From positions 1 through 64,000 of the forward strand of contig CAWCMR010000003.1 of assembly GCA_963796685.1 (NCBI GenBank): a stretch of 64,000 nucleotides of DNA, written 5' to 3'. Of this stretch, positions 13,687 through 33,521 are shown piece by piece; the first letter of the stretch is position 1, and every line of letters begins with the position of its first letter. The DNA comes from an uncultured delta proteobacterium (GTDB lineage Bacteria > Myxococcota_A > Polyangia > Fen-1088). The notes beneath the pieces were generated by a model. That model searched no databases, was not told the DNA's origin, and worked only from the letters and a program-made list of their open reading frames with translations. Made by a program: the position numbers and the translations under genes.

Positions 13687-13699
13687 CGGTGCCAGCGAC

Positions 13700-13716: not shown

Positions 13717-13928
13717 GGCGATTGGCCGAGGATTCACGAAAGAAAGGTCCGGAAACCCGATCACGGAAAGGCGGATTTCAAACGGTTCTGGTGAAGACCT
13801 GACAGCGTCCGCCCGAGCCATGGGAGCTCGGACGACGCGCCGGCAGGCAGGAAGAGTCGGCCGGGAGTTTGTGCTTTTCCGGTTGCGGACCCAGCGCAGA
13901 CCGCGAATTTCTGCCAGAATGGTGGGGC

Positions 13929-17773: not shown

Positions 17774-18154
17774 CTACCAACGCTGCTTGCGTCCGCCGCC
17801 GAATCCACCACGATCGCCGCCGCCGCCGCCGCCGCCACCGCCGAATCCACCGCGACCGCCGCCGCCACCGCCGCCGAATCCGCCGCGACCGCCACCACCA
17901 CCCGTGCGCTCGCGCGCTTCACTGACCGCGATGGAACGGCCCTGCAGATCCTTGCCGTTCAGGTTTTCGATCGCGTTCTGTGCGCCGGCATCGGTCGCCA
18001 TCTCGACGAATGCAAAGCCACGTGGACGCCCGGTGTCTCGGTCGAGCACCAGCTTGACCTCGGCCACTTCATGTCCGGTCGCTACGAATGCGTCGCGCAG
18101 ATCCGCCTCGGTCGTCGAGTAGGACAAATTGCCAACATACAGTCTCTTTCCCAT
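17774..18154 (-). CDS. RRM RNA-binding protein with Gly-rich RGG tail
   Basis: RNP2 LYVGNL; RNP1 RGFAFVEM; GGRGGFGG tail; RBS AAGGAG. Confidence 0.95.
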   Translation of the reverse strand: MGKRLYVGNLSYSTTEADLRDAFVATGHEVAEVKLVLDRDTGRPRGFAFVEMATDAGAQNAIENLNGKDLQGRSIAVSEARERTGGGGGRGGFGGGGGGGRGGFGGGGGGGGGDRGGFGGGRKQRW

Positions 18155-18784
18155 CGGAATCTCCTTCGTTCTCTGCCAGGTTTCATTTTCCGTCGACTAC
18201 CCAGCAGCGGCCTTGGAGGAGCCTCAGACGGGAGACGATCAGCCGATTTAACTCAACAAGATTGGAATCGCTCGGACCGCGATCCGCTACGAGTCGCTTT
18301 GTTGTTTCTTATCGTCGTGGCCGAAGCCCGACGCGTCGTCACCCCTCGCGCTACATACGAACCGGTTCCAAGGTCAGGTCGACCCTGGTGAGTTAAGTCT
18401 ATGGGCAAGAGGATGGGGCTGCCCTGGGAAAAAGTCCAGGGGGTTGTGGAAGATTCTCTTGCGAAAGACGCATTGGGATATGAGTTGTCTGCAGAAGCCG
18501 ACTGAAGGTGATCTCGGGGATTTGGGCGCGTCACACGATGTTCTATTGCGTCGTTCGATTCTCGAAGTTTTCTTGTAACCAAAGTGATGATGCGACGCCT
18601 CGACAGTGGACAAGTGACCGTGCTTCCGGGTACCGTGCGCTTGAATTTCTCGCCGTGGCTACCGTGAAGACGTTCAAGGAGCAGCAAGGCCGGCCGAGCA
18701 GGAACGATCGAGTTTCCAGCCGCCGGACTGAAGCTTTGCGTGGGGCGGATGTCCGCGAACGGCAGCCTGAAAGGGACGCCAGCA

Positions 18785-19396
18785 ATGAGTAACATCGGAG
18801 CCGCAACCGCTCCGTCGAACCCAGGGGAGGGTCGCCAGCCGGCGGGAGGGCCAGCGGAACGCGTCGTCGTCGCGTTCGTTTGCGAGAACTGCTCGCGGGC
18901 CGGGCTGCTGCCGACTTCGGGATTCCGGCGTCGTCCGACCACGCCCGATTTCGCATGGCCTTTCCCGGTCAGCGAGGTGATCGCGCCGTGCGCTGGACGC
19001 TTGCAGCCCGAGCATCTCCTCAAGGCCTTCGAGGACGGCGTGGACGCGGTTGGCGTCATCTGCTGCGAGGAAGGCAACTGCCACCACCTCGAAGGCAACC
19101 TGCGCTGCGGTCGCCGCCTCGACTATGTGGGCGGGCTCCTCGATCAGATTGGCCTGGGGGCCAATCGCCTGATGGTCTTCCACCTGCCAGGATCGGCGAA
19201 GGAAGACATGGCCCTTGGCGTCGGCGCGACCGCGACCGTCGATCCAAACATTCCGGAGATGAATCGCAAGGTCGCGTCCGTGCGCGACGCGTTTGTCGCC
19301 CGCCTAGCAACCCTGACAGCCAACCCCGTGCGCAAGGGCGCCTTGCTCGACGAATCCCCCTACGAAGTGGACAGCGAAGATGAAAGCGACGAATAA
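18785..19396 (+). CDS. mvhD: MvhD/FlpD-family [2Fe-2S] subunit (copy 1)
   Basis: AFVCENC, PCAGRLQPEHLLKAFEDGVDAV, CEEGNCHHLEGN. Confidence 0.85.
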   Translation: MSNIGAATAPSNPGEGRQPAGGPAERVVVAFVCENCSRAGLLPTSGFRRRPTTPDFAWPFPVSEVIAPCAGRLQPEHLLKAFEDGVDAVGVICCEEGNCHHLEGNLRCGRRLDYVGGLLDQIGLGANRLMVFHLPGSAKEDMALGVGATATVDPNIPEMNRKVASVRDAFVARLATLTANPVRKGALLDESPYEVDSEDESDE

Positions 19397-20279
19397 ACTG
19401 GCCGAGAAATTGGGCAGCGGAAAGCTGGCGCTGACCGCCGCCTGCCTGCCCCCCCACGATGCCGACGCGGCGTCGGTGAAGAAGCTGGCGGGCTACTTTC
19501 CGGCCGCGCTCGACGGCGTGGTGGTTGCCGACAACCCGGGCAAGGTGCGTGGGTCGGCGCTGGCGTGTGCGGCGCTGTTGGCGGCGGAAAAGGTAGAGCC
19601 CATGCTCTCGCTCATCACGCGCGATCGCAATCGCATTGCGCTCGAATCGGACGTCCTTGGCGGCGCCGCTCTCGGCATCAAGAACTTCCTGTGCCTCACC
19701 GGCGCGCACCAGACGCTCGGCGCGGGCGCGCAGGCGGCGGGGGCCTTCGACATCGACTCGACCCAGCTTTGCCAAGCCCTGTCCAGGATGACCTCGCAAG
19801 GGGTCGACTTCGACGGCAACAAGCTTTCCTCTTCCCCGAATTTCGGTATTGCGGTTGCCGTACACCCGTATCTGCGGCCCATCGAGCTGTCCGTTCTGCA
19901 GCTCAAGAAGAAGATCGCGGCCGGGGCCCAGGTGCTCTTGACCGATCCCATCTTCGACGTGGCAGGCTTCGAGCAGTGGATGCAGGCCGTGCGCGCTGCC
20001 GGGCTCGACAAGAAGGCCGCCATCATCGCCAGCGTGATGCCCTTGCAGAGCGTCGCCCAGGCCGAATTCCTTGCGGCGCGTTCGGGCTTTGCTCCGATTG
20101 GCGACGAGGTCATCGGCCGGCTGAAGGGTGCCAGCGACCCTATTCAGGCCGGCATCGCCATCGTGGCCGAGATTGCGGGCAAAGTGAAAGCCATCGCGGG
20201 CGTGCGTGGCGTTCACATCCTCAGCGACGGTTGCGAGCAGTCGGTGGCCAAGATCATCCAGGAGGCGCGCCTGGCGTAA
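19380..20279 (+). CDS. metF: MetF (methylene-THF reductase)-family flavoprotein with substituted folate-site residues
   Basis: RDRNRIALESDVLGGAALGIKNFLCLTG, FDIDS and LKKKIAAGA are typical of MetVF-type MetF; but TAE>TAA, TGD>TGA and TQ>TD. Confidence 0.85.
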   Translation: MKATNKLAEKLGSGKLALTAACLPPHDADAASVKKLAGYFPAALDGVVVADNPGKVRGSALACAALLAAEKVEPMLSLITRDRNRIALESDVLGGAALGIKNFLCLTGAHQTLGAGAQAAGAFDIDSTQLCQALSRMTSQGVDFDGNKLSSSPNFGIAVAVHPYLRPIELSVLQLKKKIAAGAQVLLTDPIFDVAGFEQWMQAVRAAGLDKKAAIIASVMPLQSVAQAEFLAARSGFAPIGDEVIGRLKGASDPIQAGIAIVAEIAGKVKAIAGVRGVHILSDGCEQSVAKIIQEARLA

Positions 20280-20296
20280 GCCGGGCGGAGCTGCAC

Positions 20297-21694
20297 ATGC
20301 CCGACAAGTATCATGTCAAACCCGTGGCAACGCCCGGACGCTTCCGGCGCGTGGGCAAGTTCGGCAGCGTCGATTGGCGCGAAGACTGCTCGCGCTGCAC
20401 GAACTGCGTGAAGCCGCGCTGCGTGTACGACACCTATAAGAAGGAGGCGGCCTACAATCGCGATCCTTCGACCTCGGTGGTGCCGCTTTACGAATGCCGG
20501 GGGTGTCTTTCGTGCGTGCAGGGGTGCACCAAGGGCCTCTTGGCCATCGCGCTCAATCCGGAATACCTGGCGCTGGGGGACGAGTACTGGAAGCCCGACA
20601 TCCTGGCCACCACCTGGAACCAGGCCGACAGCGGTCGCATCCCGGTGTCCGGCGCGGGGTATCGCGGCCGCTACCACGGCCCGGGCTTCGACGGCATCTG
20701 GACCGACATGTCCGAGATCGTCCGGCCCACCCGGGACGGCATCCACGGCCGCGAGTACATCAGCACCAGCGTGGACATCGGGCCGAAGCCCATGCGCCTG
20801 ACCTTCACTCCCGACGGCAAGATGCTCAGCGAGCCGAGCGCGCTCATCGACCTGCCCATCCCGCTGATTCTGGACGTCCCGCCCTGGACCATCGGCGGAC
20901 AGGCCCTGACCAAGGCGCGGCTGGCGGCAGCCAAGGCGCTCAAAGCCCTGACCGTGGCCTCGGCCGCCGAGGTCGCGGGCGTCCCAGCCGATCAGTTGCC
21001 CCACCTGGTGCCGCTCTTGGGCGGCGAAGGACTGGGCGCCGCGGAGCCGATCCTGCGCCAGGTGCGCATGGCCGAATTCGTGGACGGGGCGCAGGCGCTG
21101 GACCTGGTCAAGAAGGCCAAGGGAATCCATCCCGGCCTGATCTGCGCCCTGCGCTTGCCCATGCAGACCTATGCCGCGGACCGGATTTTGGCGGCGAGCA
21201 AGGCCGGCGTGAAGGTGTTTCATCTGTGCGCGGATCAGCACGGCCAGGAGATCGGCGCGGAGAAGCCCCGCCACATCAAGGACGCCTTGCGCGAGATCCA
21301 CACCCGCCTGGTCAAGGAAGGCATGCGCGACGAGGTCACCCTGATCGTGTCGGGAGGCATCGCCCTGGCCGAGCACATGGCCAAGGCCATCATCTGCGGC
21401 GCGGATTTGGTGGCGGTCGACACGTCGTTGCTGGTGGCGCTGGGGTGTCGCGTGTGCCGCGGAGCCTCGGGGACGACGCATGTCGAGCAATGCGCGGCCG
21501 AGGCGGGCGATCTGGATCCGGTGTACGCGGCCCAGCGCATGGTCAACTTGATGGCCGCCTGGCACTCGCAGCTCATCGAGGTGCTGGGCGCCATGGGCAT
21601 CCGCGAGGTGCGGCGTCTGCGCGGCGAAGTCGGGCGCGCCATTTTCATGGAAGATATCGAACGGGAGGCTTTCGGTGACCTTGCCTGCAAGTAG
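20297..21694 (+). CDS. Glutamate synthase FMN-barrel-like subunit with N-terminal 2x[4Fe-4S]; degenerate active site
   Basis: CSRCTNC..C and CRGCLSCVQGC; GFDGIWTDMSEIVRPTRDGIHGREYIST; LIVSGGI; GAMGIREVRRLRG; lacks MS(F/Y)G and QGAKPG. Confidence 0.8.
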   Translation: MPDKYHVKPVATPGRFRRVGKFGSVDWREDCSRCTNCVKPRCVYDTYKKEAAYNRDPSTSVVPLYECRGCLSCVQGCTKGLLAIALNPEYLALGDEYWKPDILATTWNQADSGRIPVSGAGYRGRYHGPGFDGIWTDMSEIVRPTRDGIHGREYISTSVDIGPKPMRLTFTPDGKMLSEPSALIDLPIPLILDVPPWTIGGQALTKARLAAAKALKALTVASAAEVAGVPADQLPHLVPLLGGEGLGAAEPILRQVRMAEFVDGAQALDLVKKAKGIHPGLICALRLPMQTYAADRILAASKAGVKVFHLCADQHGQEIGAEKPRHIKDALREIHTRLVKEGMRDEVTLIVSGGIALAEHMAKAIICGADLVAVDTSLLVALGCRVCRGASGTTHVEQCAAEAGDLDPVYAAQRMVNLMAAWHSQLIEVLGAMGIREVRRLRGEVGRAIFMEDIEREAFGDLACK

Positions 21695-23243
21695 TGTTCA
21701 ACCAGCGACGGGCGCGGGAAAGGCCGGTGCAGGGCAACCCGTGATTTCGGCGGGCGGCGAGCCCCAGGTGACCGTGGAGCGCACGGTGCGGCCCATGCCC
21801 GACCGCTACCGCAACGCCCTCGGCAAATACAAGATTGGACGCTCGGCCGACTGCGTGGGCTGCGGCGACTGCGTCAAGCTGTGTCCCGAGGGCGTGCACG
21901 TCAAGCCCGACGGCTACACCTTTTCGCTGCGTCCGCGCGACCACCTCTGTATCGGGCCGGATTGCGCCAAGACCGAGCATTACTGCGTCGCCAAGTGCAC
22001 CAAGAAGGCGCTGTCTATAGCGCGCAACCCGACGGTGGACGCCATGGGCGATCCGCGCTGGACCTCGGATCTGATTCTCTCCACCTGGCACATGGCCGAA
22101 ACCGGGCACGCGCCGAAAGCGGGACTCGAGCACCGGGTGGGTGCCTCGGGCGGCGGGTTCGACCGCATCGGGTTCGACTTCCCTGCGGCGCCGCCCAAAG
22201 TCGATCCGGCGAAAGTCGACACCGGGCTCGATCTCAATCGGCGCAACGATGGCCGACCGCAGGTTCACATCGATCTGCCGGTGTACGGCGGTGGCATGTC
22301 ATTCGGCTCGGTCAGCATCCACACCATCCTGGCCAAGGCGCGCACCGCCGCCGCGTGGAACATCTTCACCTGCACCGGCGAGGGCGGCTACCACGACCGC
22401 TTGAAGCCCTACGACGACCACGTCATCACCCAGGTCGCCACCGGCCTGTTCGGCGTGCGCGAGGACACCATCCAGCGCGTGCGCATGGTCGAGTTCAAGT
22501 ACGCCCAGGGCGCCAAGCCCGGCCTCGGCGGCCACTTGCTCGGCGACAAGAACACCCCGGCGGTGGCGCGCATGCGCGAGGCCGTGGCGGGCAACGCCCT
22601 GTTCTCGCCCTTTCCGTTCCACAGCGTGTACAGCGTCGAGGATCACAAGAAGCACCTCGATTGGATCAAGGAGGTCAATCCCCGCGCCCTGGTCTCGGTG
22701 AAGGTGTCCACCCCGACGGACGTGGACATGGTCGCCGTGGGCAGCTACTACGCCGGCGCGCACATCATTCACCTCGACGGCAGCTATGGCGGCACAGGCG
22801 CCGCGCCCGACATCGCCAAGAAGAACATCGCCATGCCGCTCGAATACGCCATCGCCAAGGTGCACAAGTTCCTGGTCGCGGAAGGCATTCGCGATGGCGT
22901 CACCTTGATCGTCAGCGGCGGCGCGCGCACGGCCTGGGACGTGATGAAGGCCATCGCGCTCGGCGCCGACGGCGTGGTCATCGGTACCGCGGAAATGGTC
23001 GCCCTCGGTTGCGTGCGCTGCGCGTGCTGCGAGAGCGGTCGCGGCTGTCCGCGCGGCATCGCCAGCACCGACCCCGAACTGATGATGCTGATGAGCCTCG
23101 ACTGGGCCACGCAACGCTTGATCAACCTCATGTCGGCCTGGCGCGAGCAGATGGTCGAGATCCTGGTGAAGCTCGGTATCCCGAGCACGCGCGAGCTGCG
23201 TGGCCGCAGCGACGTCCTCACCTACGCCAAGGAGGCCGAGTGA
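21675..23243 (+). CDS. gltB: Glutamate synthase FMN-binding subunit (archaeal/split GltB2 type) with ferredoxin domain
   Basis: CVGCGDCVKLCP; GGMSFGSVS; TGEGG; QVATGLFGV; EFKYAQGAKPGLGGHL; CVRCACCESGRGCPRGIA. Confidence 0.88.
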   Translation: MTLPASSVQPATGAGKAGAGQPVISAGGEPQVTVERTVRPMPDRYRNALGKYKIGRSADCVGCGDCVKLCPEGVHVKPDGYTFSLRPRDHLCIGPDCAKTEHYCVAKCTKKALSIARNPTVDAMGDPRWTSDLILSTWHMAETGHAPKAGLEHRVGASGGGFDRIGFDFPAAPPKVDPAKVDTGLDLNRRNDGRPQVHIDLPVYGGGMSFGSVSIHTILAKARTAAAWNIFTCTGEGGYHDRLKPYDDHVITQVATGLFGVREDTIQRVRMVEFKYAQGAKPGLGGHLLGDKNTPAVARMREAVAGNALFSPFPFHSVYSVEDHKKHLDWIKEVNPRALVSVKVSTPTDVDMVAVGSYYAGAHIIHLDGSYGGTGAAPDIAKKNIAMPLEYAIAKVHKFLVAEGIRDGVTLIVSGGARTAWDVMKAIALGADGVVIGTAEMVALGCVRCACCESGRGCPRGIASTDPELMMLMSLDWATQRLINLMSAWREQMVEILVKLGIPSTRELRGRSDVLTYAKEAE

Positions 23244-26077
23244 TGCGCGACCTGCCGGAACAGGTTCTAGCGACTCGCAGCCAGGTGTATGAGGAGGGCG
23301 ATCGCGTTGGCGGAGCCGGGCTTTGCCCGGCGGAGCCAGAGCGCGGGAGGGCACGGGAACCCTCCGAGGGTTCCCGTGTAGATCGCGTTGGCGGAGCCGG
23401 GCTTTGCCCGGCGGAGCCAGAGCGCGGGAGGGCACGGGAACCCTCCGAGGGTTCCCGTGTAGATCGCGTTGGCGGAGCCGGGCTTTGCCCGGCGGAGCCA
23501 GAGCGCGGGAGGGCACGGGAACCCTCCGAGGGTTCCCGTGTAGAGGAGGGTGGCTGCGGCGTCACGGGGTTTGCTTGCAACATTCCCGTGCGCGGCAAGT
23601 TCATCCACGAGCCGTCCATTCAAATGCAGAACCGCGGCAACGGCAAGGGTGGCGGTATCGCGGCGGCGGGCCTGGTGCCCGAGCAGGTCGGGGTCTCGCG
23701 CGACGTGCTCGACTCGCACTACCTGCTGCAGATCGCGCTGTTGGATCCGTCGGCGGACAACGAGGTCGAGCAAAAGTTCGTGCTGCCGCATTTCGATGTC
23801 GCCCTGTCGACCAAGCAGGAGCACCTCGACGATCACCGCGACATTCCCGGCCTCGACGTGCGACCGCCCGACATTCACCGCTACGTCGTACGGGTCAAGC
23901 CCGCGGTGCTGAAGGCTTTCGGCGAATCGAATGGCCTCGGCAAGCTGTCTCCGCGCGACCTGGAAGACGAATTCGTGTGGCGTAATTCGTACCGCTTGAA
24001 CGACACCCTGTACGCCTCGCTCGGCGAGAAGCGAGCCTTCGTGCTGTCGCACGGCCGCGACCAACTGGTGTTCAAGCTGGTCGGCTACGCCGAGCAGAAC
24101 GTCGAGTACTACAAGCTCGAGGATTTCAAGGCCCACGTCTGGATCGCCCACCAGCGCTATCCGACGAAGGGGCGCGTGTGGCACCCCGGCGGTGCGCACC
24201 CGTTCGTGGGGATCAACGAGGCTCTGGTCCACAATGGCGACTTCGCCAACTACCACTCGGTCTGCGAATACCTGCGCCAACGCAACATCAAGCAGCAGTT
24301 CCTGACCGACACCGAGGTGTCGGCGCAGCTCTTCGATCTGTGGGATCGCGTCTACAAGTACCCGCTGGAATACATCATCGAGGCCCTGGCGCCCACCACC
24401 GAGCTGGACTTCGACCAGCTGCCCAAGGACAAGCAGCGCATCTACCGCGAGATCCAGGCCACCCACATCCACGCCTCGCCCGACGGGCCGTGGTTCTTCA
24501 TCATCGCGCGCAACCATCCCGATCTCCATCGCATGCAGCTCCTTGGCATCACGGACACGGCCATGCTGCGGCCGCAGGTGTTCGCGCTCTCGGACAGTGG
24601 CGACGTGCAGATCGGCCTTATTTGCTCGGAGAAGCAGGCCATCGACGCTACCTTGCGCGGACTGTCGCGCGAGGATCCGCGCTTCTCGCCCGTGGCCGAT
24701 CGCTACTGGAACGCGCGCGGCGGCAGCAGCAGCGACGGAGGCGCCTTCATCTTCACGGTGACGGGAGACGAGGGAAAGAAGAAGCTGACTTGCGCCGACA
24801 AGTTCGGCCGGCAGGTCAAGCTCGACATCGGCAAGGTCCGTTGCGATCAGCCGAAATCGGCGCCGCTGGTGGAGATCGTCTCGGCCGGCATCCGCAAGGC
24901 GATCGCCGAGTCGCTCAAGCAGGGCAGGGCGCACGATCTCTACACCCACGTGGTGCGGAGCCTCCCGGGATGGCCCGCCGCCGGTCTGCGCGAGCTGTGC
25001 GAGCAGATCGTCGCAGCGGCCGATAACGGCCGCGCCAAGGCCACCGCCATCGAGGCGCTGACCTTGCTCTACGACCGCCGCTACGACACCGGCGACAAGC
25101 GCCGCGCCACCGTCCTGCCCGTGCTCGAAGAGACGCTGATGCGCCTGTTCGACGCCACGCCACTCATCGGTGAGCCCGGAGAAGGCACGTTCCGACGGTT
25201 CCATTGGGACAGTCGGAACAACATCGAAGCGCCCAAGCCTGGCGAAGAGATCCTGGTCATCGACGCGGAGAAGTTTCCGCCCGAGGGTGACGACTGCGAT
25301 GCCGTGTACCTGCGCAAGGCCTATGAGGCCGGTTGGAAGCGCTTCATCGTGTACCGCCTGCGCGGTCAGCGCTTCACCGGCGTCGGCCTTGGCCCGAGCA
25401 CCCACGGCGTGCGCATCGACACCTACGGGTCGAGCGGCGACTACCTGGCGAGTGGCATGGACGGCGAGGAGATCTATGTCCACGGCAATGCCCAGGATCA
25501 GGTCGGCCAGATCGCCAAGCAGGGCAAGCTGGTCATCTACGGCGACGTGGGTCAGACCTTCATGTACGGCGCCAAGGGCGGCGACGTCTTCATCATGGGC
25601 AATGGCGCGGGCCGGCCGCTCATCAATGCCGTCGGTCGTCCGCGCGTGGTCATCAACGGCACCTGCCTCGACTTTCTTGCCGAGTCGTTCATGGCCGGCG
25701 ATCCGCTCAATGGCGGCGGATTCGTCATCCTGAACGGGGTGGAATTCGACGGCCACGCCAAGCTGGTGCCGCTGGCCTCGCCCTACCCGGGCAGCAACCT
25801 GTTCTCGCTCGCCTCGGGCGGCGCCATCTATGTGCGCGACCCGGACAAGAAGGTGGTCGAACAGCAATTGAACGGCGGCGTGTTCGCGGCCTTCACGGGC
25901 GCCGACTGGCGCCTGATTCGAGCCTACTTGGAAGAGAACGAGCGCTTGTTCGGCATCAACGTGCAGGACCTACTGACCGTGAACGGCAAGTTGTGCGAGC
26001 CCGAGCAGGTGTATCGCAAAGTCAGCGCGCAGGCGCTGGCGGTGCTGGCGGCCGCGACCAAGGAGTCGAAGAAATGA
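23243..26077 (+). CDS. Glutamate synthase amidotransferase (class II Ntn) + GXGXG domain fusion (GltB1/GltB3)
   Basis: TGATG overlap; EEGG-CGV nucleophile Cys at 23555; HQRYPT; HPF; HNGD; TDTE; C-terminal GSSGDYLASGMDG...GDVGQTFMYGAKGG beta-helix. Confidence 0.88.
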   Translation: MRDLPEQVLATRSQVYEEGDRVGGAGLCPAEPERGRAREPSEGSRVDRVGGAGLCPAEPERGRAREPSEGSRVDRVGGAGLCPAEPERGRAREPSEGSRVEEGGCGVTGFACNIPVRGKFIHEPSIQMQNRGNGKGGGIAAAGLVPEQVGVSRDVLDSHYLLQIALLDPSADNEVEQKFVLPHFDVALSTKQEHLDDHRDIPGLDVRPPDIHRYVVRVKPAVLKAFGESNGLGKLSPRDLEDEFVWRNSYRLNDTLYASLGEKRAFVLSHGRDQLVFKLVGYAEQNVEYYKLEDFKAHVWIAHQRYPTKGRVWHPGGAHPFVGINEALVHNGDFANYHSVCEYLRQRNIKQQFLTDTEVSAQLFDLWDRVYKYPLEYIIEALAPTTELDFDQLPKDKQRIYREIQATHIHASPDGPWFFIIARNHPDLHRMQLLGITDTAMLRPQVFALSDSGDVQIGLICSEKQAIDATLRGLSREDPRFSPVADRYWNARGGSSSDGGAFIFTVTGDEGKKKLTCADKFGRQVKLDIGKVRCDQPKSAPLVEIVSAGIRKAIAESLKQGRAHDLYTHVVRSLPGWPAAGLRELCEQIVAAADNGRAKATAIEALTLLYDRRYDTGDKRRATVLPVLEETLMRLFDATPLIGEPGEGTFRRFHWDSRNNIEAPKPGEEILVIDAEKFPPEGDDCDAVYLRKAYEAGWKRFIVYRLRGQRFTGVGLGPSTHGVRIDTYGSSGDYLASGMDGEEIYVHGNAQDQVGQIAKQGKLVIYGDVGQTFMYGAKGGDVFIMGNGAGRPLINAVGRPRVVINGTCLDFLAESFMAGDPLNGGGFVILNGVEFDGHAKLVPLASPYPGSNLFSLASGGAIYVRDPDKKVVEQQLNGGVFAAFTGADWRLIRAYLEENERLFGINVQDLLTVNGKLCEPEQVYRKVSAQALAVLAAATKESKK
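23300..23542 (+). repeat. Three identical tandem 81-bp palindromic units inside the CDS
   Basis: Units start at 23300, 23381 and 23462. Each has hairpins GCCGGGC-TTT-GCCCGGC and CACGGGAACCCT-CCG-AGGGTTCCCGTG. GAGGAGGG flanks both sides. Confidence 0.95.
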
Positions 26078-26640
26078 CCATGACCCTGGCAGCAGGCGAA
26101 ATGTCCGGGGACTTCGCTGCGCAAGTCGAAGCTGAAAGCCACGCCAATTTGATGGCGTGCCTGCAGTGCAAGAAGTGCACTTCGGGTTGCCCGGTGGCCG
26201 CGGTTGCCGACGTCAAGCCGCACGAAATGGTGCGCATGGTGCAGTTCGGTCAGCGCGACGAAGTGCTGACGAGCAAGATGCTCTGGCAGTGTACCTCGTG
26301 CCAGACCTGCGCCACCCGCTGCCCGCAGAAGGTCAGCGTGGCCGCGCTCAACGACGGCCTGCGCCGCATGAGCGCCCGGGCCAAGGCGCGCAGCAAGGGC
26401 GCGGTCCCGACCTTCAACAGGATCTTCATGAAGGCGGTGCGCGAGCGCGGGCGCATGAACGAAGCGGGCCTCATGGCCTCGTTCAAGCTGCGCACCGGTC
26501 GGCTGTTCGAGGACATGGGCAAGCTGCCCATGATGCTCCTCAAGGGCAAGATGCCGCTGTGGCAGGCGGCGTCGCCGGGCCGCGGCGAGCGCGAGGCGAT
26601 GTTCGACCGCGCGGCCAAAGCGAAGGGCAGCAAGTCATGA
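26074..26640 (+). CDS. hdrC: Heterodisulfide reductase subunit C-like
   Basis: CLQCKKCTSGCP and LWQCTSCQTCATRCP; ATGA overlap with the upstream gene. Confidence 0.9.
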   Translation: MTMTLAAGEMSGDFAAQVEAESHANLMACLQCKKCTSGCPVAAVADVKPHEMVRMVQFGQRDEVLTSKMLWQCTSCQTCATRCPQKVSVAALNDGLRRMSARAKARSKGAVPTFNRIFMKAVRERGRMNEAGLMASFKLRTGRLFEDMGKLPMMLLKGKMPLWQAASPGRGEREAMFDRAAKAKGSKS

Positions 26641-26972
26641 CCGCCCGGAGTTTTTTCACCACAGAGGGCACAGAGAGCACAGAGACGGACCGGAGGGAAA
26701 GAAATGGTCGAATCCGGATCCGGATCCGGAGAACCCATCCCCTTCCGGCCTCTGTTGACCTGTCCATGAATTGGACAGGTCGACGGAAGCCGAGCCAAAG
26801 GCTCGGCCGCAGGTGGGGTGAAGTCCGCGAATTCACTTCGCGGACGAGGGGCGGGCCGCGGCCCGCCCCTTTGAAATCTTCAAGACGGGTCCATTTATGG
26901 ACACGTCTTGTGTCCTCTGTGCTCTCTGTGGTTCATCATCCGGATCGCACCACGAAAGGCGGTGCTTCGTGA
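26637..26972 (+). CDS. Possible 111-aa translational-coupling ORF spanning the hdrC-hdrB insertion
   Basis: Its ATG overlaps the hdrC stop (ATGA 26637-26640) and its TGA overlaps the hdrB start (GTGA 26969-26972); no recognisable domain. Confidence 0.3.
   Translation: MTARSFFTTEGTESTETDRRERNGRIRIRIRRTHPLPASVDLSMNWTGRRKPSQRLGRRWGEVREFTSRTRGGPRPAPLKSSRRVHLWTRLVSSVLSVVHHPDRTTKGGAS
26658..26932. mobile_element. MITE-like/structured element with CACAGAG-type terminal inverted repeats and six internal palindromes
   Basis: Left end ACCACAGAGGGCACAGAG matches the reverse complement of the right end, ACCACAGAGAGCACAGAG (17/18). Stems at 26713-30, 26757-81, 26789-807, 26823-45, 26847-70 and 26881-910. 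Confidence 0.7.
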
Positions 26973-27835
26973 GCTACGCGTTCTTCCCGGGTTGTAGTAT
27001 GGAAGGCACGGCGCACGACTATCAGAAGTCGACGGTGGCGGTGAGCAAGGTGCTGGGGCTGGAATTGCCCGAGATTCCCGGGTGGACTTGTTGCGGCTCG
27101 ACCTCGGCACACCAGACGGACCACCTGTTGTCGCTGGCTCTGCCGGCCAAGAACCTGGTCGCCGCCGAGGGCAAGCCCGTGGCCGTGGGGTGCGCCGCCT
27201 GTTACAGCCGCCTGAAGACCGCCAACTACGAAATCGCCAACGACGAGCAAACGCGCAAGTCCGTGGCCGGCGTCGTCGGCAAGGACTACGACGGCAAGAC
27301 CGAGATCCTGCACCTGCTCGAGATCCTGGCCCGCGACGTCGGCATGAAGAAGATTGCCGAGGCGACGAAGAAGCCGCTCAAGGGACTCAAGCTGGTCACC
27401 TACTACGGCTGCCTGCTCTCGCGACCGCCCGAGGTTACCAAGTTCGACGACCCGGAAAACCCGACGCTGATGGATCAGGTGCTGGAGGCCGCGGGCGCGA
27501 CCATCCTCGAATGGCCGCACAAGACCGAGTGCTGCGGCGCCGGGTATTCGATCACCGACGTCACCATCGTCAAGAAGCTCACGCGCGAAATCCTGGCCAT
27601 GGCCAAGGCCGCCGGTGCCGACTGCATCGCGACGGCGTGTCCGCTGTGCCAGCTCAATCTCGATTTGCGCCAGAAGGATACGGAAGAGGCATCCGGCGAA
27701 CGGTTCAACCTGCCGGTGTTCTATTTCACGCAGTTGCTGGGCCTGGCCTTCGGCCTTTCCCGCAAAGAATTGGGCCTGCGCAGCCTGGTGGTCAGCCCCA
27801 AGAAGCTCTTGGCCGACCGTGGAATTGGTGTTTGA
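26969..27835 (+). CDS. hdrB: Heterodisulfide reductase subunit B-like (two CCG domains)
   Basis: FFPGC...WTCCGS...CAACY and YYGC...ECCGAG...ACPLCQLNL; GTG start. Confidence 0.92.
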   Translation: MSYAFFPGCSMEGTAHDYQKSTVAVSKVLGLELPEIPGWTCCGSTSAHQTDHLLSLALPAKNLVAAEGKPVAVGCAACYSRLKTANYEIANDEQTRKSVAGVVGKDYDGKTEILHLLEILARDVGMKKIAEATKKPLKGLKLVTYYGCLLSRPPEVTKFDDPENPTLMDQVLEAAGATILEWPHKTECCGAGYSITDVTIVKKLTREILAMAKAAGADCIATACPLCQLNLDLRQKDTEEASGERFNLPVFYFTQLLGLAFGLSRKELGLRSLVVSPKKLLADRGIGV

Positions 27836-27844
27836 GGCAAGACG

Positions 27845-30800
27845 ATGAGCGAACAGGGCAAACCCACGAATGGTAATTCCACCAAAGCCCCCGAGGCGGT
27901 CGGCGCGGTCATGGTGTGTGGCGCCGGCATCACCGGCATTCAGGCGTCGCTCGATTTGGCCGAATCCGGGTTCAAGGTCTATCTCGTCGAACAGTCGGCG
28001 GCCATCGGTGGCCGCATGGCCCAGCTCGACAAGACCTTTCCCACCGGCGACTGCGCCATGTGCATTCTCTCGCCCAAATTGGTCGAGTGCGCGCGCAACA
28101 AGAACATCGACATCATCACCCTGGCCGACATCGAAGGCATCAGCGGCGAGGTCGGCAACTTCGAGGTGAAGCTGCGCCAGCGCCCCCGTTACATCGACCT
28201 GAGCAAGTGCAACGCCTGTGGCGATTGCGCCATCGCGTGTCCGGTGTCGCTTCCGAACGAATTTGACCGCGCCCTCGGCACGCGCAAGGCCGTGTTCCGT
28301 CCCTACGCGCAGGCCATTCCCAACGTCTTCGGCATTTCCAAGGCCGAAGGCATGGCCCCGTGCAAAGCGGCCTGCCCGGCCGGCGTCAACGCCCAGGGCT
28401 ACGTCGCCTTGATCGCGGCCGGCAAGTTCGAGGAGGCCTACGAGCTGGTCAAAGAGCGCTGCCCGCTGCCGGCGGTGTGCGGCCGCATCTGCCAGCACCC
28501 GTGCGAAGGCCAGTGCAACCGCAAGGATCTCGACGAGCCCGTGGCCGTGCGCGACCTCAAGCGCTTCGCCGCCGATTTCGTCTACGCCAAGCGCGACAAG
28601 AAGACGCGTGCCCCTTTCCAGCCGGTCAAAATCCAGAAGGAGAAGGTCGCTGTCATTGGCGGTGGTCCGGCCGGTCTCACCGCCGCGCAGGATCTGACCA
28701 AACAGGGCTACCCGGTGACCCTGTTCGAATCGCGTCCATTCTTGGGCGGCATGCTTCGTCTGGGCGTGCCCGCGTACCGTCTGCCGCGCGACGTGCTCGA
28801 CTACGAGATCGAGCAGATCCTCAACGAGCGGGTCGAGGTGAAGCTCGGCGCGAAGCTGGGCAACGGGCCGAAAGACATCACCATCGAGGGGCTCAAGAGG
28901 GACGGCTTCTCGGCCATCTTCGTGGCCACGGGCGCGCACAAGAGCCAGAAGATGGGTCTGCCCGGCGACGACGTGACCGGCGTGATGTACGGCCTCGACT
29001 TCCTCGTGGGCGTGAACCTGGGCGAGAAGGGGTCGCGTGGGGAGCGGCGAGCTTTGCTCGACGCGGACCATCGCGGGAGGGTTGGGGAACCCTCCCAGGG
29101 GTCCCCTGTTGAGATCGGCAAGAAGACCGTCGTCGTGGGCGGCGGCAACGTGGCCATGGATGCCGCGCGCGCGGCCCTGCGCATGGGCGCCAAGGAAGTC
29201 ACGGTGGTCTACCGCCGCAGCCGCGTGGAAATGCCGGCTTTGCCCGAAGAGATCGTGCAAGCGGAAGAAGAGGGCGTGAAGCTCGAGCTGTTGACCAATC
29301 CCATCAAGGTGATTGCCAGCAATGGCCGGGCAATCGGGCTCGAGTGCTTGCGCATGAAGCTGGGCGAGCCCGATGCCTCGGGGCGCCGCCGTCCGGTTCC
29401 CGTCGAGGGCTCCAATTTCACCGTCGCCGCCGACAACGTCATCATCGCCATCGGCCAGACCGCCGATATCGAAGGCGTGCCGCTGGAAAGCGGGAAGATC
29501 GCCGCCGACGGATCCCTGGCCACCAAGGTTCCCGGCGTGTTCGCCGGCGGCGATGTGGTGCTCGGCCCTGCCTCCTTGGTCGAGGCCATGGCCCATGGCC
29601 ACCACGCGGCCGCCGCGATTCACGCCTTCCTGCGCGGCCAGCCCATGCCGGTGCTCGAAACCGCGACGAAAGCCACCGCACCCAACCCCAACCCGGCGGC
29701 CGAGTCGGTCGCCAAGCAGGCCATGAAGAAGATCGTGGTCGAGGACCGCACGCGCGACTTCCGCGAGATCGAGCTCGGCTACACTGCCGAGGAAGCCATG
29801 GCCGAGGCCAAGCGCTGCCTCGCTTGCGGTCTGTGCAGCGAGTGCGGGCTGTGCGTGAAGGCCTGCGGCCCCGGCGCCATCGTGCACGACATGCAGCCCA
29901 AGTCGGAATCCATCCGCGTGGGCTCGGTCATCCTTACCCCCGGCTACGAGGAGTTCCAGGCTAGCCTGCGCGGCGAGTTCGGGCACGGCCGCTACGCCAA
30001 TGTGCTTTCCAGCGTGCAGTTCGAGCGCATGCTGAGCGCGTCCGGTCCCACGGAAGGCCACGTGCAGCGGCCGTCCGACGGCAAGCCGGTGAAGAAGATC
30101 GCCTTCATCCAGTGCGTAGGCTCGCGCGACAGCGCCCGCGGCAACGGCTACTGCTCGTCCATCTGTTGCATGTCCGCGACCAAGGAGGCCATGGTCGCGC
30201 TCGAGCACGTGCAAGGGCTCGATATCTCCATCTTCTGCATGGACGTGCGCGCCTTCGGCAAGGAGTTCGACGGCTACGTCAACCGCGCTCGCGACGAGCA
30301 CGGCGTGAAGTACATCCGCGCCATGCCCTCGCGCGTGGTGGAAATGCCTGGCAGCAAGAACGCCCGGGTGCGCTTCTTCGACGAGAAGGGCGACGAGCAC
30401 CAGGACGAATACGACCTGGTCGTTCTGTCGGTCGGCCTGCGCCCGAGCGCTTCGGTCAAAGACACCGCAGCCAAGCTCGGCCTGGATCTGAATTCATTCG
30501 GGTTCTGCCAGACCGATCGTCTGGCGCCCATGGCGGCGTCCAAGCCCGGCATCTACGTGGCCGGCGCCTTCCAAGAGCCGAAGGACATTCCCGAATCGGT
30601 GGCGCAAGCCTCGGGCGCCGCCGCCTGCGCGATGGAGAAGCTATCTCTCGCGCGCGGCACCCTGATCAAACGCCACGAGTACCCGTGGGAGCGTGACGTC
30701 ACCGACGAGAAGGCACGCATCGGCATCTTCATCTGCCACTGCGGCCACAACATCGCCTCGGTCGTCGACGTGAAGAAGGTGGCCGAAGCCGCCGGCAAGA

Positions 30801-32389
30801 TGCCGGGCATCGCGCACGCCGAAACCAACCTGTACGCGTGCTCGGACACCAGCCAGCAGCACATCAAGGACGTGATCCGCGAAAAGCGGCTCAACCGCCT
30901 GGTGGTTGCGTCGTGCTCGCCGCGCACCCACGAGGTGCTTTTCCAAGAGACCCTGCGCGAGTCGGGCCTCAACCAATATCTCTTCGCCATGACCAACATC
31001 CGCGACCAGTGCTCGTGGGTGCACAAGAACGATCCCGAGGCCGCGACCGAGAAGGCCACGGACCTCATGCGCATGGCCGTGGCGCGCGCGCGCAACCTCA
31101 AGGCGCTGGGCACGGGCAAGCTGCCGGTGGTGCAATCGGCGCTGGTGCTGGGGGGCGGCCTGGCCGGCATGACCACCGCGCTGGCGCTCGGCGACCAAGG
31201 CTTCGCCGTGCACCTGTGCGAAAAGGAAGCGGTGCTGGGCGGGCAACTGCGCAATATTCGCTATACGCTCGAAGGCTCGGACGTCGCCGGCTTCTTGACC
31301 GAGCTCATCGCGCGGGTCGAGAAGCACCCCAAGATCACGCTGCACTTGCGGACCAAGCCGGTCCAAATCACGGGCCACGTGGGCAACTTCAAGACCCGCC
31401 TGGACGAGGCCGGCAAAGAGCAGACCATCAGCCACGGCGTCATCGTGCTGGCGGTCGGCGGTCAGGAACGCCAGACGGATTTGTATCTCAACGGCAAACA
31501 CCCCGGCGTCATGACCCAGCGCCAGCTCGAAGAGAAGTTGGCCCCAAAGACCTTGGCTGGCTCCGAGTCTCCGTCCATCGTTATGATCCAGTGCGTGGAC
31601 AGCCGCAACGACGCGCACCCGTATTGCAGCCGCGTGTGCTGCTCGGCGGCCATCAAGAACGCACTCGAGCTGAAGAAGCAAAAGCCCAAGGCCAAGGTGA
31701 TCGTCCTGTACAAGGACATCCGCACCTACGGTTTCCGCGAGTTGGCCTACCAGCAGGCGCGCGAGGCGGGTGTGCTCTTCATTCGCTACGACGACAAACA
31801 GGATCCCGTGGTCAGCGACAAGGGGGGGCTGGCGGTCGACGTCGTCGACGCCAGCAACGGTCGAGAAATCACCTTCAAGCCCGACCTGGTGGTTCTGTCG
31901 ACCGGCATCGCACCGGCCGCCGACAATCCGGTCATCTCGGGTCTTCTGCGCAGCGCCTTGACCGCCGATGGCTTCTTCCTGGAAGCCCATCCCAAGCTGC
32001 GCCCGGTGGATCTGGCGAACGAAGGCGAGTTCATCGCCGGGCTCTGCCACTCGCCGCGCTTCATCGACGAGACCATCGCACAGGCCAAGGCCGTGGCCGG
32101 GCGCGCAGCCACGGTCTTGTCGCGCGCTTTCCTCGATATCGCCGGCCAGGTGGCCAAGGTCGACCCCACCGACTGCGTGGCCTGCGCCACCTGCGTGAAG
32201 GTGTGTCCGTACGGCGCACCCATGATCAACGACTTGCACAAGGCCGAAATCCAAGTTGCCAAGTGCATGGGCTGCGGCTCGTGCACGGCGGCCTGCCCGG
32301 CCCATACCATCACCCTGCAACACCAGGAATGCACCCAAGTGACCGCCATGCTCGACGAATTGCTCGTCGGTGAAGGAGCCGCGCAATGA
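27845..32389 (+). CDS. hdrA: Large HdrA (HdrL-type): HdrA + GltD-like NAD(P)H oxidoreductase module + second HdrA module
   Basis: GGRMAQLDKTFPTGDCAMC; PCKAACP...CGRICQHPCEGQCNR; GGGPAG; GGGNVAMD...YRRS; two HdrA cores (IQCVGSRD...YCSSICC..ATK and IQCVDSRN...YCSRVCC..AIK); C-terminal ferredoxin. Confidence 0.92.
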   Translation: MSEQGKPTNGNSTKAPEAVGAVMVCGAGITGIQASLDLAESGFKVYLVEQSAAIGGRMAQLDKTFPTGDCAMCILSPKLVECARNKNIDIITLADIEGISGEVGNFEVKLRQRPRYIDLSKCNACGDCAIACPVSLPNEFDRALGTRKAVFRPYAQAIPNVFGISKAEGMAPCKAACPAGVNAQGYVALIAAGKFEEAYELVKERCPLPAVCGRICQHPCEGQCNRKDLDEPVAVRDLKRFAADFVYAKRDKKTRAPFQPVKIQKEKVAVIGGGPAGLTAAQDLTKQGYPVTLFESRPFLGGMLRLGVPAYRLPRDVLDYEIEQILNERVEVKLGAKLGNGPKDITIEGLKRDGFSAIFVATGAHKSQKMGLPGDDVTGVMYGLDFLVGVNLGEKGSRGERRALLDADHRGRVGEPSQGSPVEIGKKTVVVGGGNVAMDAARAALRMGAKEVTVVYRRSRVEMPALPEEIVQAEEEGVKLELLTNPIKVIASNGRAIGLECLRMKLGEPDASGRRRPVPVEGSNFTVAADNVIIAIGQTADIEGVPLESGKIAADGSLATKVPGVFAGGDVVLGPASLVEAMAHGHHAAAAIHAFLRGQPMPVLETATKATAPNPNPAAESVAKQAMKKIVVEDRTRDFREIELGYTAEEAMAEAKRCLACGLCSECGLCVKACGPGAIVHDMQPKSESIRVGSVILTPGYEEFQASLRGEFGHGRYANVLSSVQFERMLSASGPTEGHVQRPSDGKPVKKIAFIQCVGSRDSARGNGYCSSICCMSATKEAMVALEHVQGLDISIFCMDVRAFGKEFDGYVNRARDEHGVKYIRAMPSRVVEMPGSKNARVRFFDEKGDEHQDEYDLVVLSVGLRPSASVKDTAAKLGLDLNSFGFCQTDRLAPMAASKPGIYVAGAFQEPKDIPESVAQASGAAACAMEKLSLARGTLIKRHEYPWERDVTDEKARIGIFICHCGHNIASVVDVKKVAEAAGKMPGIAHAETNLYACSDTSQQHIKDVIREKRLNRLVVASCSPRTHEVLFQETLRESGLNQYLFAMTNIRDQCSWVHKNDPEAATEKATDLMRMAVARARNLKALGTGKLPVVQSALVLGGGLAGMTTALALGDQGFAVHLCEKEAVLGGQLRNIRYTLEGSDVAGFLTELIARVEKHPKITLHLRTKPVQITGHVGNFKTRLDEAGKEQTISHGVIVLAVGGQERQTDLYLNGKHPGVMTQRQLEEKLAPKTLAGSESPSIVMIQCVDSRNDAHPYCSRVCCSAAIKNALELKKQKPKAKVIVLYKDIRTYGFRELAYQQAREAGVLFIRYDDKQDPVVSDKGGLAVDVVDASNGREITFKPDLVVLSTGIAPAADNPVISGLLRSALTADGFFLEAHPKLRPVDLANEGEFIAGLCHSPRFIDETIAQAKAVAGRAATVLSRAFLDIAGQVAKVDPTDCVACATCVKVCPYGAPMINDLHKAEIQVAKCMGCGSCTAACPAHTITLQHQECTQVTAMLDELLVGEGAAQ
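29030..29107 (+). repeat. In-frame 78-bp palindromic insertion homologous to the 81-bp unit
   Basis: Shares TCGCGT, xGxGC-TTT-GCxCG, CGCGGGAGGG and GGGAACCCTCCxAGGGxTCCC with the 23300 unit; adds 26 aa between VNLGEK and VEIGKK. Confidence 0.8.
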
Positions 32390-32856
32390 GCGAGCTTGTC
32401 CCCCAGACGACGACCAGGCCCAAATCGGCCGGCAACGACCAATGGGAGCCGGAGATCATCGCCTTCTGCTGCAACTTCTGCGCCTACGCAGCCGCCGACC
32501 TGGCCGGCTCGCGCCGCATGCAATACCCGTCCAACGTGCGCGTGATGCACGTGCCTTGCACCGGCAAGATCGAAATGGAGCACATCCTGTCGGCCTTCGA
32601 AAAGGGCATCGACGGAGTGCTCATCGCCGGGTGCCTGGAAGGCGGTTGCCACTTTCTGGAAGGTAATCTGCGCGCCAAGAAGCGCAGCGAGTATTTGCGC
32701 GAGATGCTGGACCAGATCGGCGTGGGCCGCGAGCGCCTGCGCATGGTCAACCTGTCGGCCGCCGAGGCGCCGACCTTCGTCAAGCGCGTGAAGGAAATCG
32801 TCGAGACCGTGAAAGGCCTGGGTCCGAATCCCCTGAGAAAGAGTGGAACGCCATGA
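32386..32856 (+). CDS. mvhD: MvhD/FlpD-family [2Fe-2S] subunit (copy 2)
   Basis: IIAFCCNFCAYAAADLAG; VPCTGK; GCLEGGCHFLEGN. Confidence 0.94.
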   Translation: MSELVPQTTTRPKSAGNDQWEPEIIAFCCNFCAYAAADLAGSRRMQYPSNVRVMHVPCTGKIEMEHILSAFEKGIDGVLIAGCLEGGCHFLEGNLRAKKRSEYLREMLDQIGVGRERLRMVNLSAAEAPTFVKRVKEIVETVKGLGPNPLRKSGTP

Positions 32857-33521
32857 TCGTCGCCAGCCCCAAACCCGTCACCGAGCTGAAACAACTCATC
32901 GACCGGCACAAGAAGGTGCTGTTCGTCGGCTGCGGCACCTGCGTGACCGTGTGCCTGGCCGGCGGCGAGCGTGAAGTCGGCATCGCCGGCTACGCCACGC
33001 GCATGGCGCGCAAACTCTCCGGCCAACCCATCGAGCTGGAGCAAGTCACCATCGAGCGCCAGTGCGAAAACGAGTTCATCAAGGATCTGGCCGACCCCAT
33101 CGCGCGCGCCGAGGCCGTGGTCTCGTTCGGCTGCGGGGCCGGGGTGCAAGCCATCGCCGAGCGCTTCCCCAACAAACCCGTCTACGCCGGCCTCAACACC
33201 AACTTCCTCGGCATCCTGGAAGAGCAAGCCGTGTGGACGGAGAAGTGCATGGCCTGCGGCGACTGCATGCTGGCCGAATTCGGCGGCATCTGCCCCGTCA
33301 CCCGCTGCGCGAAGCACATGCTCAACGGCCCGTGCGGCGGCAGCACGACCGATAGGTGCGAGGTCGCGGAAGATCGTCCGTGCGCGTGGCAGCTCATCTA
33401 CAAGCGCCTGAGCGCCATCGGCCAGCTCGACCGCCTGGAAAAGATCCAGCCGCCCAAGAACTGGAGCCTGGCGTGGTTCGGCGGGGCGCGCAAGCTGGTG
33501 CGGAACGAGCACCGGGTTTAG
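32853..33521 (+). CDS. metV: MetV (methylene-THF reductase small Fe-S/Zn subunit)
   Basis: VGCGTCVTVCLAGG; ERQCENEF; GCGAGVQ; EKCMACGDC...GICPVTRCAKHMLNGPCGG...CAWQLIY. Confidence 0.9.
   Translation: MIVASPKPVTELKQLIDRHKKVLFVGCGTCVTVCLAGGEREVGIAGYATRMARKLSGQPIELEQVTIERQCENEFIKDLADPIARAEAVVSFGCGAGVQAIAERFPNKPVYAGLNTNFLGILEEQAVWTEKCMACGDCMLAEFGGICPVTRCAKHMLNGPCGGSTTDRCEVAEDRPCAWQLIYKRLSAIGQLDRLEKIQPPKNWSLAWFGGARKLVRNEHRV

Follow-up and report, generated by a model that had tools for sequence, protein, structure and literature searches.

We examined ten consecutive genes in DNA from an uncultured delta proteobacterium (GTDB lineage Myxococcota_A; Polyangia; Fen-1088; assembly GCA_963796685.1) as a candidate operon that joins a split glutamate synthase to electron-transfer proteins of the Hdr, MvhD and MetF/MetV types. 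The window, meaning the whole stretch analysed, comprised the first 64,000 nucleotides (nt) of contig CAWCMR010000003.1, and the genes lay on its forward strand between positions 18785 and 33521. All ten were intact open frames to which families could be assigned by Pfam, in the order mvhD, metF-like, gltB2* (a degenerate copy), gltB2, GATase-GXGXG, hdrC, hdrB, hdrL, mvhD, and metV. This is the set of families, the single strand, and the order that had been read from the letters alone in an earlier interpretation (hereafter the original prediction). The genes are as follows, with GATase denoting glutamine amidotransferase and FMN flavin mononucleotide:

18785..19396, forward strand: mvhD1, 203 aa from the ATG at 18785, a diverged MvhD/FlpD-type iron-sulfur adaptor (PF02662, 78 bits)
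19380..20279, forward strand: metF-like, a TIM-barrel flavoprotein homologue (PF02219, MTHFR, 74 bits)
20297..21694, forward strand: gltB2*, a paralogue of the FMN subunit, matching only the C-terminal part of PF01645 (57 bits)
21795..23243, forward strand: gltB2, the FMN/Fe-S synthase subunit, with an N-terminal Fer4 region (PF01645, 305 bits)
23243..26077, forward strand: GATase-GXGXG, a fusion of a class-II glutamine amidotransferase and a GXGXG beta-helix (PF13522, GATase_6, and PF01493)
26074..26640, forward strand: hdrC, a two-[4Fe-4S] subunit (Fer4_17 and Fer4_8) that matched the HdrC models of NCBIfam below their cut-off
26969..27835, forward strand: hdrB, with a GTG start and PF02754 in two stretches (two CCG domains), 85 bits
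27845..32389, forward strand: hdrL, 1514 aa, an HdrA with an inserted NfnL/GltD-type module
32386..32856, forward strand: mvhD2, a canonical MvhD (PF02662, 162 bits)
32853..33521, forward strand: metV, the Fe-S/zinc-ribbon partner of MetF-type reductases (PF12225, 127 bits)

The first two genes overlapped by 17 nt and a 17-nt gap separated the metF-like gene from gltB2*. The stop of gltB2 and the start of the amidotransferase gene shared 1 nt within TGATG, overlaps of 4 nt were observed at the GATase/hdrC, hdrL/mvhD2 and mvhD2/metV junctions, and hdrB ended 9 nt before hdrL. The most likely start of gltB2 was ATG 21795 rather than GTG 21675, as alignments with its paralogue, its relatives, and a fused homologue all began at that Met. 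With this start a 100-nt gap follows gltB2*, so the close joins of the original prediction were mostly borne out as overlaps and short gaps, with this junction as a correction. Further in-frame starts were present upstream of mvhD1 (18740 and 18749) and of hdrB (ATG 26897). Approximately 630 nt of non-coding DNA preceded mvhD1, and the flanks of the locus were unrelated to it (histidine kinases, a CLC channel, the quinol-type nitric oxide reductase qNor and, on the reverse strand, a B12-radical SAM gene).

The glutamate synthase (GOGAT) genes retained the residues by which such enzymes are recognized. GltB2 matched the Azospirillum GltS alpha subunit (2vdc, 1ea0) with 176 bits, and its GEGG, KxAQGAKPGxGG (KYAQGAKPGLGG) and GGTGAAP motifs, together with its Cys cluster, were in register with those structures. 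In the amidotransferase, the motifs 'CGV', 'HQRYPTKG', 'HNGD' and 'TDTE' aligned to GlmS and were invariant in eight homologues; the catalytic Cys lay within 'EEGGCGV', behind a propeptide leader of 15-35 residues in eight relatives, and removal of this propeptide was assumed. The GXGXG domain scored 47 bits against PF01493 (cut-off 32.5), and its best match among solved structures was FwdC 5t5i. A complete 2.3-Mb Chloroflexota chromosome (G004) encoded only the three Glt proteins of the cluster; this trio provided its sole PF01645 matches above 30 bits, and no glutamate dehydrogenase of the ELFV type (PF00208) was found on the chromosome. With its catalytic motifs kept, the trio is probably a real, working glutamate synthase. 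Elsewhere in the window genome a canonical GltB was encoded (1621-aa frame), and a strong additional PF01645 gene was present in three of four other genomes checked, the second match in the fourth (G003) being broken across frames. Where another strong PF01645 gene occurs in the same genome, the Hdr-linked enzyme would be a second isoenzyme.

GltB2* shared 28% identity with GltB2. It lacked about 50 residues, including the AQGAKPGxGG substrate loop, as well as the GGTGA motif, and retained two CxxCxxCxxxC motifs and C-terminal cysteines; each of the two proteins had its own two-cluster ferredoxin-like N-terminus. Mean column identity of GltB2* across 21 sequences was 70%, with long invariant stretches. 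Such strong conservation suggests a functional subunit, either non-catalytic or differently catalytic, and not a decaying copy. In all, 1051 long proteins matched GltB2* at E<=1e-10; the best 120 of these were about 960-1070 residues long, and 119 of the 120 covered 96-100% of GltB2*. In the sole fusion checked (P0137, 982 aa), GltB2* aligned to residues 1-458 (47% identity), followed by GltB2 at 502-978 (66%). This fusion, in the gene order of the window, argues for a physical unit. In one-piece GltB the central domain precedes the FMN domain, and P0137 mirrors that order. A check for the central domain itself yielded no specific PF04898 match in the Glt proteins; GltB2*, a degenerate barrel that precedes GltB2 in the P0137 fusion, may fill that role. 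AlphaFold2 models of GATase-GXGXG (8-row alignment; mean pLDDT, the predicted local distance difference test, 49.3) and of GltB2* (21 rows; mean 50.5, confident only at about 200-375) were too poor for fold search or comparison, and the ESM Atlas returned only generic 'glutamate synthase-related' clusters for GltB2*.

MetV, MvhD and HdrABC homologues were encoded together with these genes (Pfam). The Hdr set was complete in composition: an HdrA flavoprotein, an HdrB with two CCG domains, an HdrC with two [4Fe-4S] motifs, and MvhD, all below the cut-offs of the respective equivalog models (205 bits for HdrB against TIGR03288, for example). HdrL matched methanogen HdrA (5odc) over four stretches with 597 bits. 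Its residues ~165-665 formed an NfnL/GltD-type module for flavin adenine dinucleotide (FAD), NAD(P)H, and two [4Fe-4S] clusters, with the motif GGGNVAMD, and a second HdrA-like half began at about residue 958 (NCBIfam). The insert was closest to NfnL (4ylf_B, 318 bits) and scored 199 bits against GltD (2vdc_G). The original prediction had noted that no stand-alone GltD was present; no free GltD was indeed encoded, and a GltD/NfnL-type NAD(P)H module was instead embedded in HdrL. Candidates for electron donation were thus this module and the ferredoxin-like domains of the Glt subunits, and the insert is the predicted donor site of the Hdr module. Hydrogenase and formate dehydrogenase catalytic-subunit families had no match among the ten proteins (Pfam). 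In mvhD1, four Cys were invariant across 18 orthologues. Complex prediction for MvhD1 and the MetF-like protein with GltB2* as partner scored 0.04 and 0.00, where the mark was 0.32, and was not used either way.

The MetF-like protein was aligned with the canonical MetF of the same genome (contig C8, 308 bits), a second MetF (C5), and orthologues. It carried Ala21, Ala109 and Asp189 at the columns of the catalytic Glu, Asp and Gln of canonical MetF, which we take to be residues 28, 120 and 183 of the E. coli protein, those of the folate half-reaction. Among 61 related loci surveyed, the Glu/Asp/Gln triad was kept in all ten of the delta type and in 14 of the 51 others; the Asp was replaced in 32 of those 51 (by Asn in 17, Ala in 5, and other residues in 10), and in the Myxococcota clade that holds the window protein all three residues were lost. 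The original prediction that MetF appears inactive toward folate probably applies to the window protein; it does not extend to the whole family, part of which has intact triads. The alignments suggest a conserved fold in which folate catalysis has been given up repeatedly. An Asp-to-Asn change in E. coli MetF is reported to impair the folate half-reaction severely and the NADH half-reaction much less, so that the protein could conceivably still relay electrons by its flavin or accept them from NAD(P)H. As a check for a Wood-Ljungdahl context, AcsB (PF03598) was looked for in the window genome, which is 88.6% complete, and no match was found. Given the residue loss, the canonical MetF elsewhere, and the AcsB result, the MetF-like protein here is unlikely to be a Wood-Ljungdahl reductase. 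MetV of the cluster was the only PF12225 match in the genome. Among longer proteins, a search for fusions of MetF-like with Glt or MvhD domains gave five hits, all MetH-type, BHMT-type or unrelated, a weak negative. The second MetF (C5:351884-352939) had intact catalytic residues and was in register with the delta-type MetF that adjoins MetV.

The amidotransferase fusion protein served as query for a survey of related loci. It had at least 7729 relatives in a large protein collection, with 73-75% identity across phyla, and a scan of one genome per species yielded 496 genomes encoding one. The best 80 of the 496 loci, all from metagenome-assembled genomes, were examined by mapping the ten window proteins with tblastn. 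Order was counted in the 47 loci that had at least 5 kb of upstream and 7.8 kb of downstream sequence; the 33 with short flanks were left out of the counts and were consistent with the order as far as their sequence reached. All ten genes occurred in window order in 32 of the 47 loci, from six phyla: Acidobacteriota (10), Actinomycetota (8), Myxococcota (8, one labelled delta proteobacterium), Chloroflexota (3), Planctomycetota (2), and Verrucomicrobiota (1). The original prediction had declared beforehand that it would be refuted by an order not conserved in other genomes, and conservation was what we found. In one further actinomycetotal locus (L078), only the hdrL hit was missing, at the coverage threshold used, and two Lentisphaerota loci (L052, L053) whose sequence ends early matched this order over the part that is present. 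Shorter forms were also observed within the 47: hdrCB was absent in seven Acidobacteriota loci; all hdr genes were absent in two others, which read mvhD-metF-like-trio-metV (e.g., L051); the Glt trio stood alone in two Chloroflexota loci; and three loci of Thermodesulfobacteriota (delta) type read mvhD-trio-metV-metF, confirmed by Pfam in L081. Uncultured bacteria from at least seven phyla thus share the arrangement, and its recurrence across phyla places it far from chance.

A FastTree phylogeny built from 78 rows of the fusion protein, rooted at the midpoint and with local support values only, separated the delta type as its own clade. The trio-only Chloroflexota were nested inside ten-gene Chloroflexota and the hdr-less Acidobacteriota among ten-gene clades, so secondary loss would seem to account for the short operon forms. 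An Acidobacteriota clade enclosed the Actinomycetota and an Anaeromyxobacter-type pair, which points to transfer of the whole operon.

Nitrogen genes recurred beside the cluster. Within 10 kb, amtB was found at 12 of the 80 loci and glnK at nine, in four phyla; by our estimate, proximity of amtB is expected by chance at about 1% of loci, given one to three copies per genome. In Actinomycetota the amtB/glnK genes were just upstream on the same strand, and four of the five loci of this kind had two pairs. Elsewhere they lay upstream (two Acidobacteriota), downstream (one Chloroflexota), or divergently upstream (three delta-type loci). An NtrC-type sigma-54 activator preceded the operon in eight Acidobacteriota loci, and a divergent LysR regulator did so in seven Bryobacteraceae loci. 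Neighbouring gmaS and mgdABCD genes define the N-methylglutamate pathway; no gmaS- or mgd-type (sarcosine-oxidase-like) family was found by Pfam among the ten cluster proteins and 20 flanking open reading frames (ORFs) of the window. At related loci, the scan covered ten selected flank ORFs.

Taken together, we consider it somewhat better than an even bet (probability about 0.55) that the ten genes make up a single operon encoding a glutamine-dependent glutamate synthase of several subunits, with a non-standard, Hdr-type electron input. The evidence that carries this reading is the gene content, the intact motifs, the interleaved gene order, the GltB2*-GltB2 fusion, and the nitrogen neighbourhood; a 2-oxoacid:ferredoxin oxidoreductase-type gene in the same window (52609-54219) also counts in its favour, and together with the qNor gene hints at a facultatively anaerobic, ferredoxin-using host. 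The amidotransferase-GXGXG fusion would release ammonia from glutamine, and GltB2, with its ferredoxin domain, Fe-S cluster and FMN, would reduce 2-iminoglutarate. GltB2* would probably act as a scaffold or electron relay, as the central domain does in one-piece GltB. This core would be wired to an Hdr-type module made of HdrL, two MvhD, MetV, the MetF-like protein, and HdrBC. The genes for the MetF-like protein and MetV, normally partners, lie towards the two ends of the operon with an mvhD gene next to each, an arrangement that is hard to square with two independent enzymes.

A more ambitious version, which we advance only tentatively, is that all ten proteins form a single flavin-based bifurcating glutamate synthase, in which NADPH at HdrL drives both glutamate formation and the uphill reduction of ferredoxin or a disulfide. 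In such an enzyme NADPH would reduce the flavins of HdrL. One set of electrons would reach the FMN of GltB2 exergonically by way of MvhD, MetV, the MetF-like protein and Fe-S clusters, and the surplus driving force of the synthase reaction would power a second, uphill transfer to ferredoxin, to a disulfide at HdrBC, or to both. With NAD(P)H as reductant the synthase reaction is highly exergonic (roughly -50 kJ/mol), and in the HdrA and NfnL families bifurcation is known to occur at the flavins; NADPH-driven bifurcation would therefore be thermodynamically sensible. Assembly as one complex and bifurcation itself are plausible and, like the electron route and the donor, are things we infer.

Several observations weigh against both the synthase reading and its bifurcating version. 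The short operon forms look functional, which suggests that the Glt core works without Hdr and that Hdr is an accessory, not a requirement; Hdr could even be a separate enzyme that shares only ferredoxin with the core. Lineages that keep the MetF triad (14 of 51 non-delta and 10 of 10 delta-type loci) may include folate chemistry in the system. The canonical GltB of the window genome means that the operon is not needed for housekeeping. Repeat insertions in the amidotransferase propeptide and beside the NADPH motif of HdrL, described below, might impair this copy even with its frames open. No NCBIfam model reached its curated cut-off for any of the ten proteins. No sigma-54 site (TGGCAC-N5-TTGC, up to two mismatches) was found on the forward strand between 16753 and 19625. 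The original interpretation of a single complex thus kept its gene content, coupled unit, conserved order and loss of MetF residues in this copy, and had to be amended with respect to the GltD module, the generality of MetF inactivation, and the dispensability of Hdr.

Reading through positions 17900-18800 revealed no convincing sigma-54 site upstream of mvhD1; the sigma-54 pattern search returned 95 matches where 76.6 were expected, a sigma-70 scan returned 0 sites, and terminator-like sites numbered 13 against 12.4 in shuffled sequence.

The most serious alternative is that two or three enzymes merely share the operon, a ferredoxin-dependent split GOGAT that receives electrons by its own ferredoxin domains and a separate HdrL-MvhD-HdrBC NADPH:ferredoxin/disulfide oxidoreductase that would supply or balance reduced ferredoxin, the two being linked through free ferredoxin and not wired directly. 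The Glt trio on its own in three Chloroflexota loci (L073, L075, L087), the forms without hdrCB or without any hdr gene, and the two-cluster ferredoxin-like N-termini of GltB2 and GltB2* all fit such a division, and HdrL, MvhD and HdrBC alone would make a complete module of a known type, as far as the accessible parts of the published descriptions go (PMC2702500, PMC5947623). Nevertheless, metF-like and metV bracket the whole operon, mvhD stays by the Glt genes where Hdr is absent (mvhD-metF-like-trio-metV in L051, mvhD-trio-metV-metF in the delta type), and the ten-gene order with its overlapping stop and start codons extends across six phyla; we therefore regard shared residence as unlikely, if worth keeping in view. 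A Moorella-type methylene-tetrahydrofolate reductase complex (MetFV-HdrABC-MvhD), with GOGAT as a second electron partner that couples C1 and nitrogen metabolism, would accord with the delta-type MetF, which has its Glu/Asp/Gln intact and matches PF02219 over its full length (130 bits), and with the triads kept in 14 of 51 other orthologues. It is made quite improbable by the Ala/Ala/Asp of the window protein, the replacement of Asp in 32 of 51 orthologues, the canonical MetF (308 bits) elsewhere in the genome, and the lack of an AcsB match at 88.6% completeness. A reaction like that of N-methylglutamate synthase, or another amine/2-oxoacid reaction in place of glutamate synthesis, has in its favour that MgsABC, too, are GltB homologues in separate pieces and share these three types of domain and that AmtB proteins also carry methylammonium, and it appears most improbable of all in the face of GltB2 motifs for 2-oxoglutarate and FMN that align with authentic GltS, a trio that is the sole GOGAT candidate in G004, an external electron chain that would be superfluous for a redox-neutral reaction, and a genomic context that offers amtB-glnK as the recurrent neighbour and adds nothing in support.

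The proposed Hdr-linked glutamate synthase can be compared with several known systems. Like GltBD of Azospirillum brasilense (1ea0, 2vdc, 6s6s), it comprises an Ntn-type amidotransferase, an FMN/Fe-S synthase, a GXGXG domain, and a GltD-type module. It differs in dividing the alpha subunit among three proteins, with a degenerate FMN-domain paralogue in the position expected of the central domain. In addition, the synthase subunits have ferredoxin-like N-termini, and the GltD-type module is inserted into HdrA and not free. Archaeal split glutamate synthases, with a separate amidotransferase, a ferredoxin-fused FMN subunit and GXGXG parts, bear a likeness to the window set. In the window, by contrast, amidotransferase and GXGXG are fused, and an extra degenerate GltB2* is always present. 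Partners also differ: MvhD, MetV, MetF-like and Hdr in the window, as opposed to the FrhB-type F420 modules of the archaeal-type forms, among which putative F420-dependent ones have been reported (accessible text of PMC9012536). The methylene-tetrahydrofolate reductase of Moorella thermoacetica (accessible text of PMC6085437) likewise has MetF, MetV, MvhD and HdrABC homologues in one cluster, whereas the window cluster is interrupted by three Glt genes, has an HdrL-type HdrA and a second MvhD, and has lost the MetF residues, and no AcsB was found in its genome.

HdrL itself falls among the large HdrA proteins that carry a GltD/NAD(P)H module as an insert and whose gene is followed by mvhD. Such proteins are known from Desulfobacterium autotrophicum and Syntrophobacter fumaroxidans (PMC2702500, PMC5947623), and a GltD insert also marks 'type III HdrA' (PMC12054007). 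In the accessible parts of these papers, the loci are tied to dsr, fdh or hdrABC, and glutamate synthase subunits or MetV/MetF beside them go unmentioned. The insert is closest to NfnL of NfnSL (4ylf, 5jca; 318 and 291 bits), the bifurcating-FAD subunit; here the cluster has no NfnS partner and the module is embedded in HdrA. The formylmethanofuran dehydrogenase-Hdr (Fwd-Hdr) supercomplex, whose HdrA (7bkb) matches HdrL with 481 bits and whose FwdC (5t5i) is the best GXGXG match, is a precedent for Hdr wired directly to a catalytic enzyme. That complex is archaeal, reduces CO2, and has other partners.

The original prediction knew of no characterization of this arrangement, and we too found no description in the full-text literature, a scope that excludes subscription-only papers and supplements. 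Glt subunits inside an Hdr/MetVF cluster are not described in the accessible portions of PMC5736913, PMC7325909, PMC10746287, PMC6046458, PMC7306483, PMC9012536, PMC12054007 and PMC6085437. Glt or MetVF beside Hdr is not described in those of PMC5947623 and PMC2702500 either, whose proteome and locus tables could list such genes without comment.

If GOGAT is wired to Hdr and MetFV-type modules, this would be a new design of electron input. Glutamate synthase is the main entry of nitrogen into biomass, and its known electron sources are NAD(P)H via GltD, ferredoxin, and, as has been proposed, F420. Bifurcation, if real, would add a new class of bifurcating enzyme by which nitrogen assimilation conserves energy that would otherwise be lost (roughly 50 kJ/mol) in energy-starved anaerobes, and that form would be widespread in anoxic soil and peat bacteria. 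The family is common and some carriers have fen-derived isolate names, so the function of the operon bears on nitrogen cycling in fen-type habitats. For dissecting the modules, the loci offer a natural series: ten genes, no HdrBC, no Hdr, and the Glt trio only.

Two further features of the locus are repeats inside the operon:

23300..23544, no strand: 81-bp repeat array, period 81, 3.0 copies, 100% match (Tandem Repeats Finder), a hairpin-rich member of a dispersed family
26641..26968, no strand: hdrC-hdrB spacer, 328 nt of dispersed repeat copies, a local insertion

The array was in frame within the amidotransferase propeptide, upstream of the catalytic Cys codon (23555-23557), and added 3 x 27 codons (81 residues) that were absent from eight homologues of 73-93% identity. 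We rejected the possibility that this N-terminus marks a broken gene: the frame is open, the insert is in-frame, and the stretch before the Cys varies in length among relatives. A propeptide before the catalytic Cys is usual in bacterial GltB, so the insert is probably tolerated. A second in-frame insert of 26 residues from the same 81-bp family was observed in HdrL at about nt 29030-29107 (motif match 29085-29105), directly before GGGNVAMD, and was missing in all six orthologues compared. In-frame insertions of this kind resemble the palindromic elements of Rickettsia. The 76-81-bp hairpin-rich family gave 133 blastn-short hits in the genome (contigs C5, C7, C8, C10, C13, C21 and C25). Of these, 66 had a length of 60 nt or more, and the copies frequently stood in tandem, 2-8 to an array. 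About 170 bp of the spacer belonged to a different repeat, with copies of 90-99% identity on at least six other contigs (C6, C8, C9, C13, C22 and C23); a tandem array of it was observed on C23. In 45 related loci, the median distance from hdrC to hdrB was estimated at -4 nt.

Outside the operon, window positions 8800-13800 were very GC-rich (0.69-0.74), with long ORFs on both strands (648, 1063, 545 and 462 aa) that had no Pfam match. A small reverse-strand ORF upstream of the operon (17900-18154) had, as judged by eye, the look of an RNA-binding protein of the RNA recognition motif type. A CLC chloride channel with CBS domains was encoded at 38528-40450, 5 kb downstream of the operon, and two Chloroflexota loci (L073, with the channel at 13594-15435, and L075) likewise had a CLC channel immediately after the Glt trio, which may be coincidence. 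The quinol-type nitric oxide reductase, a NorB with a cytochrome c-like domain, was encoded at 40441-42786.

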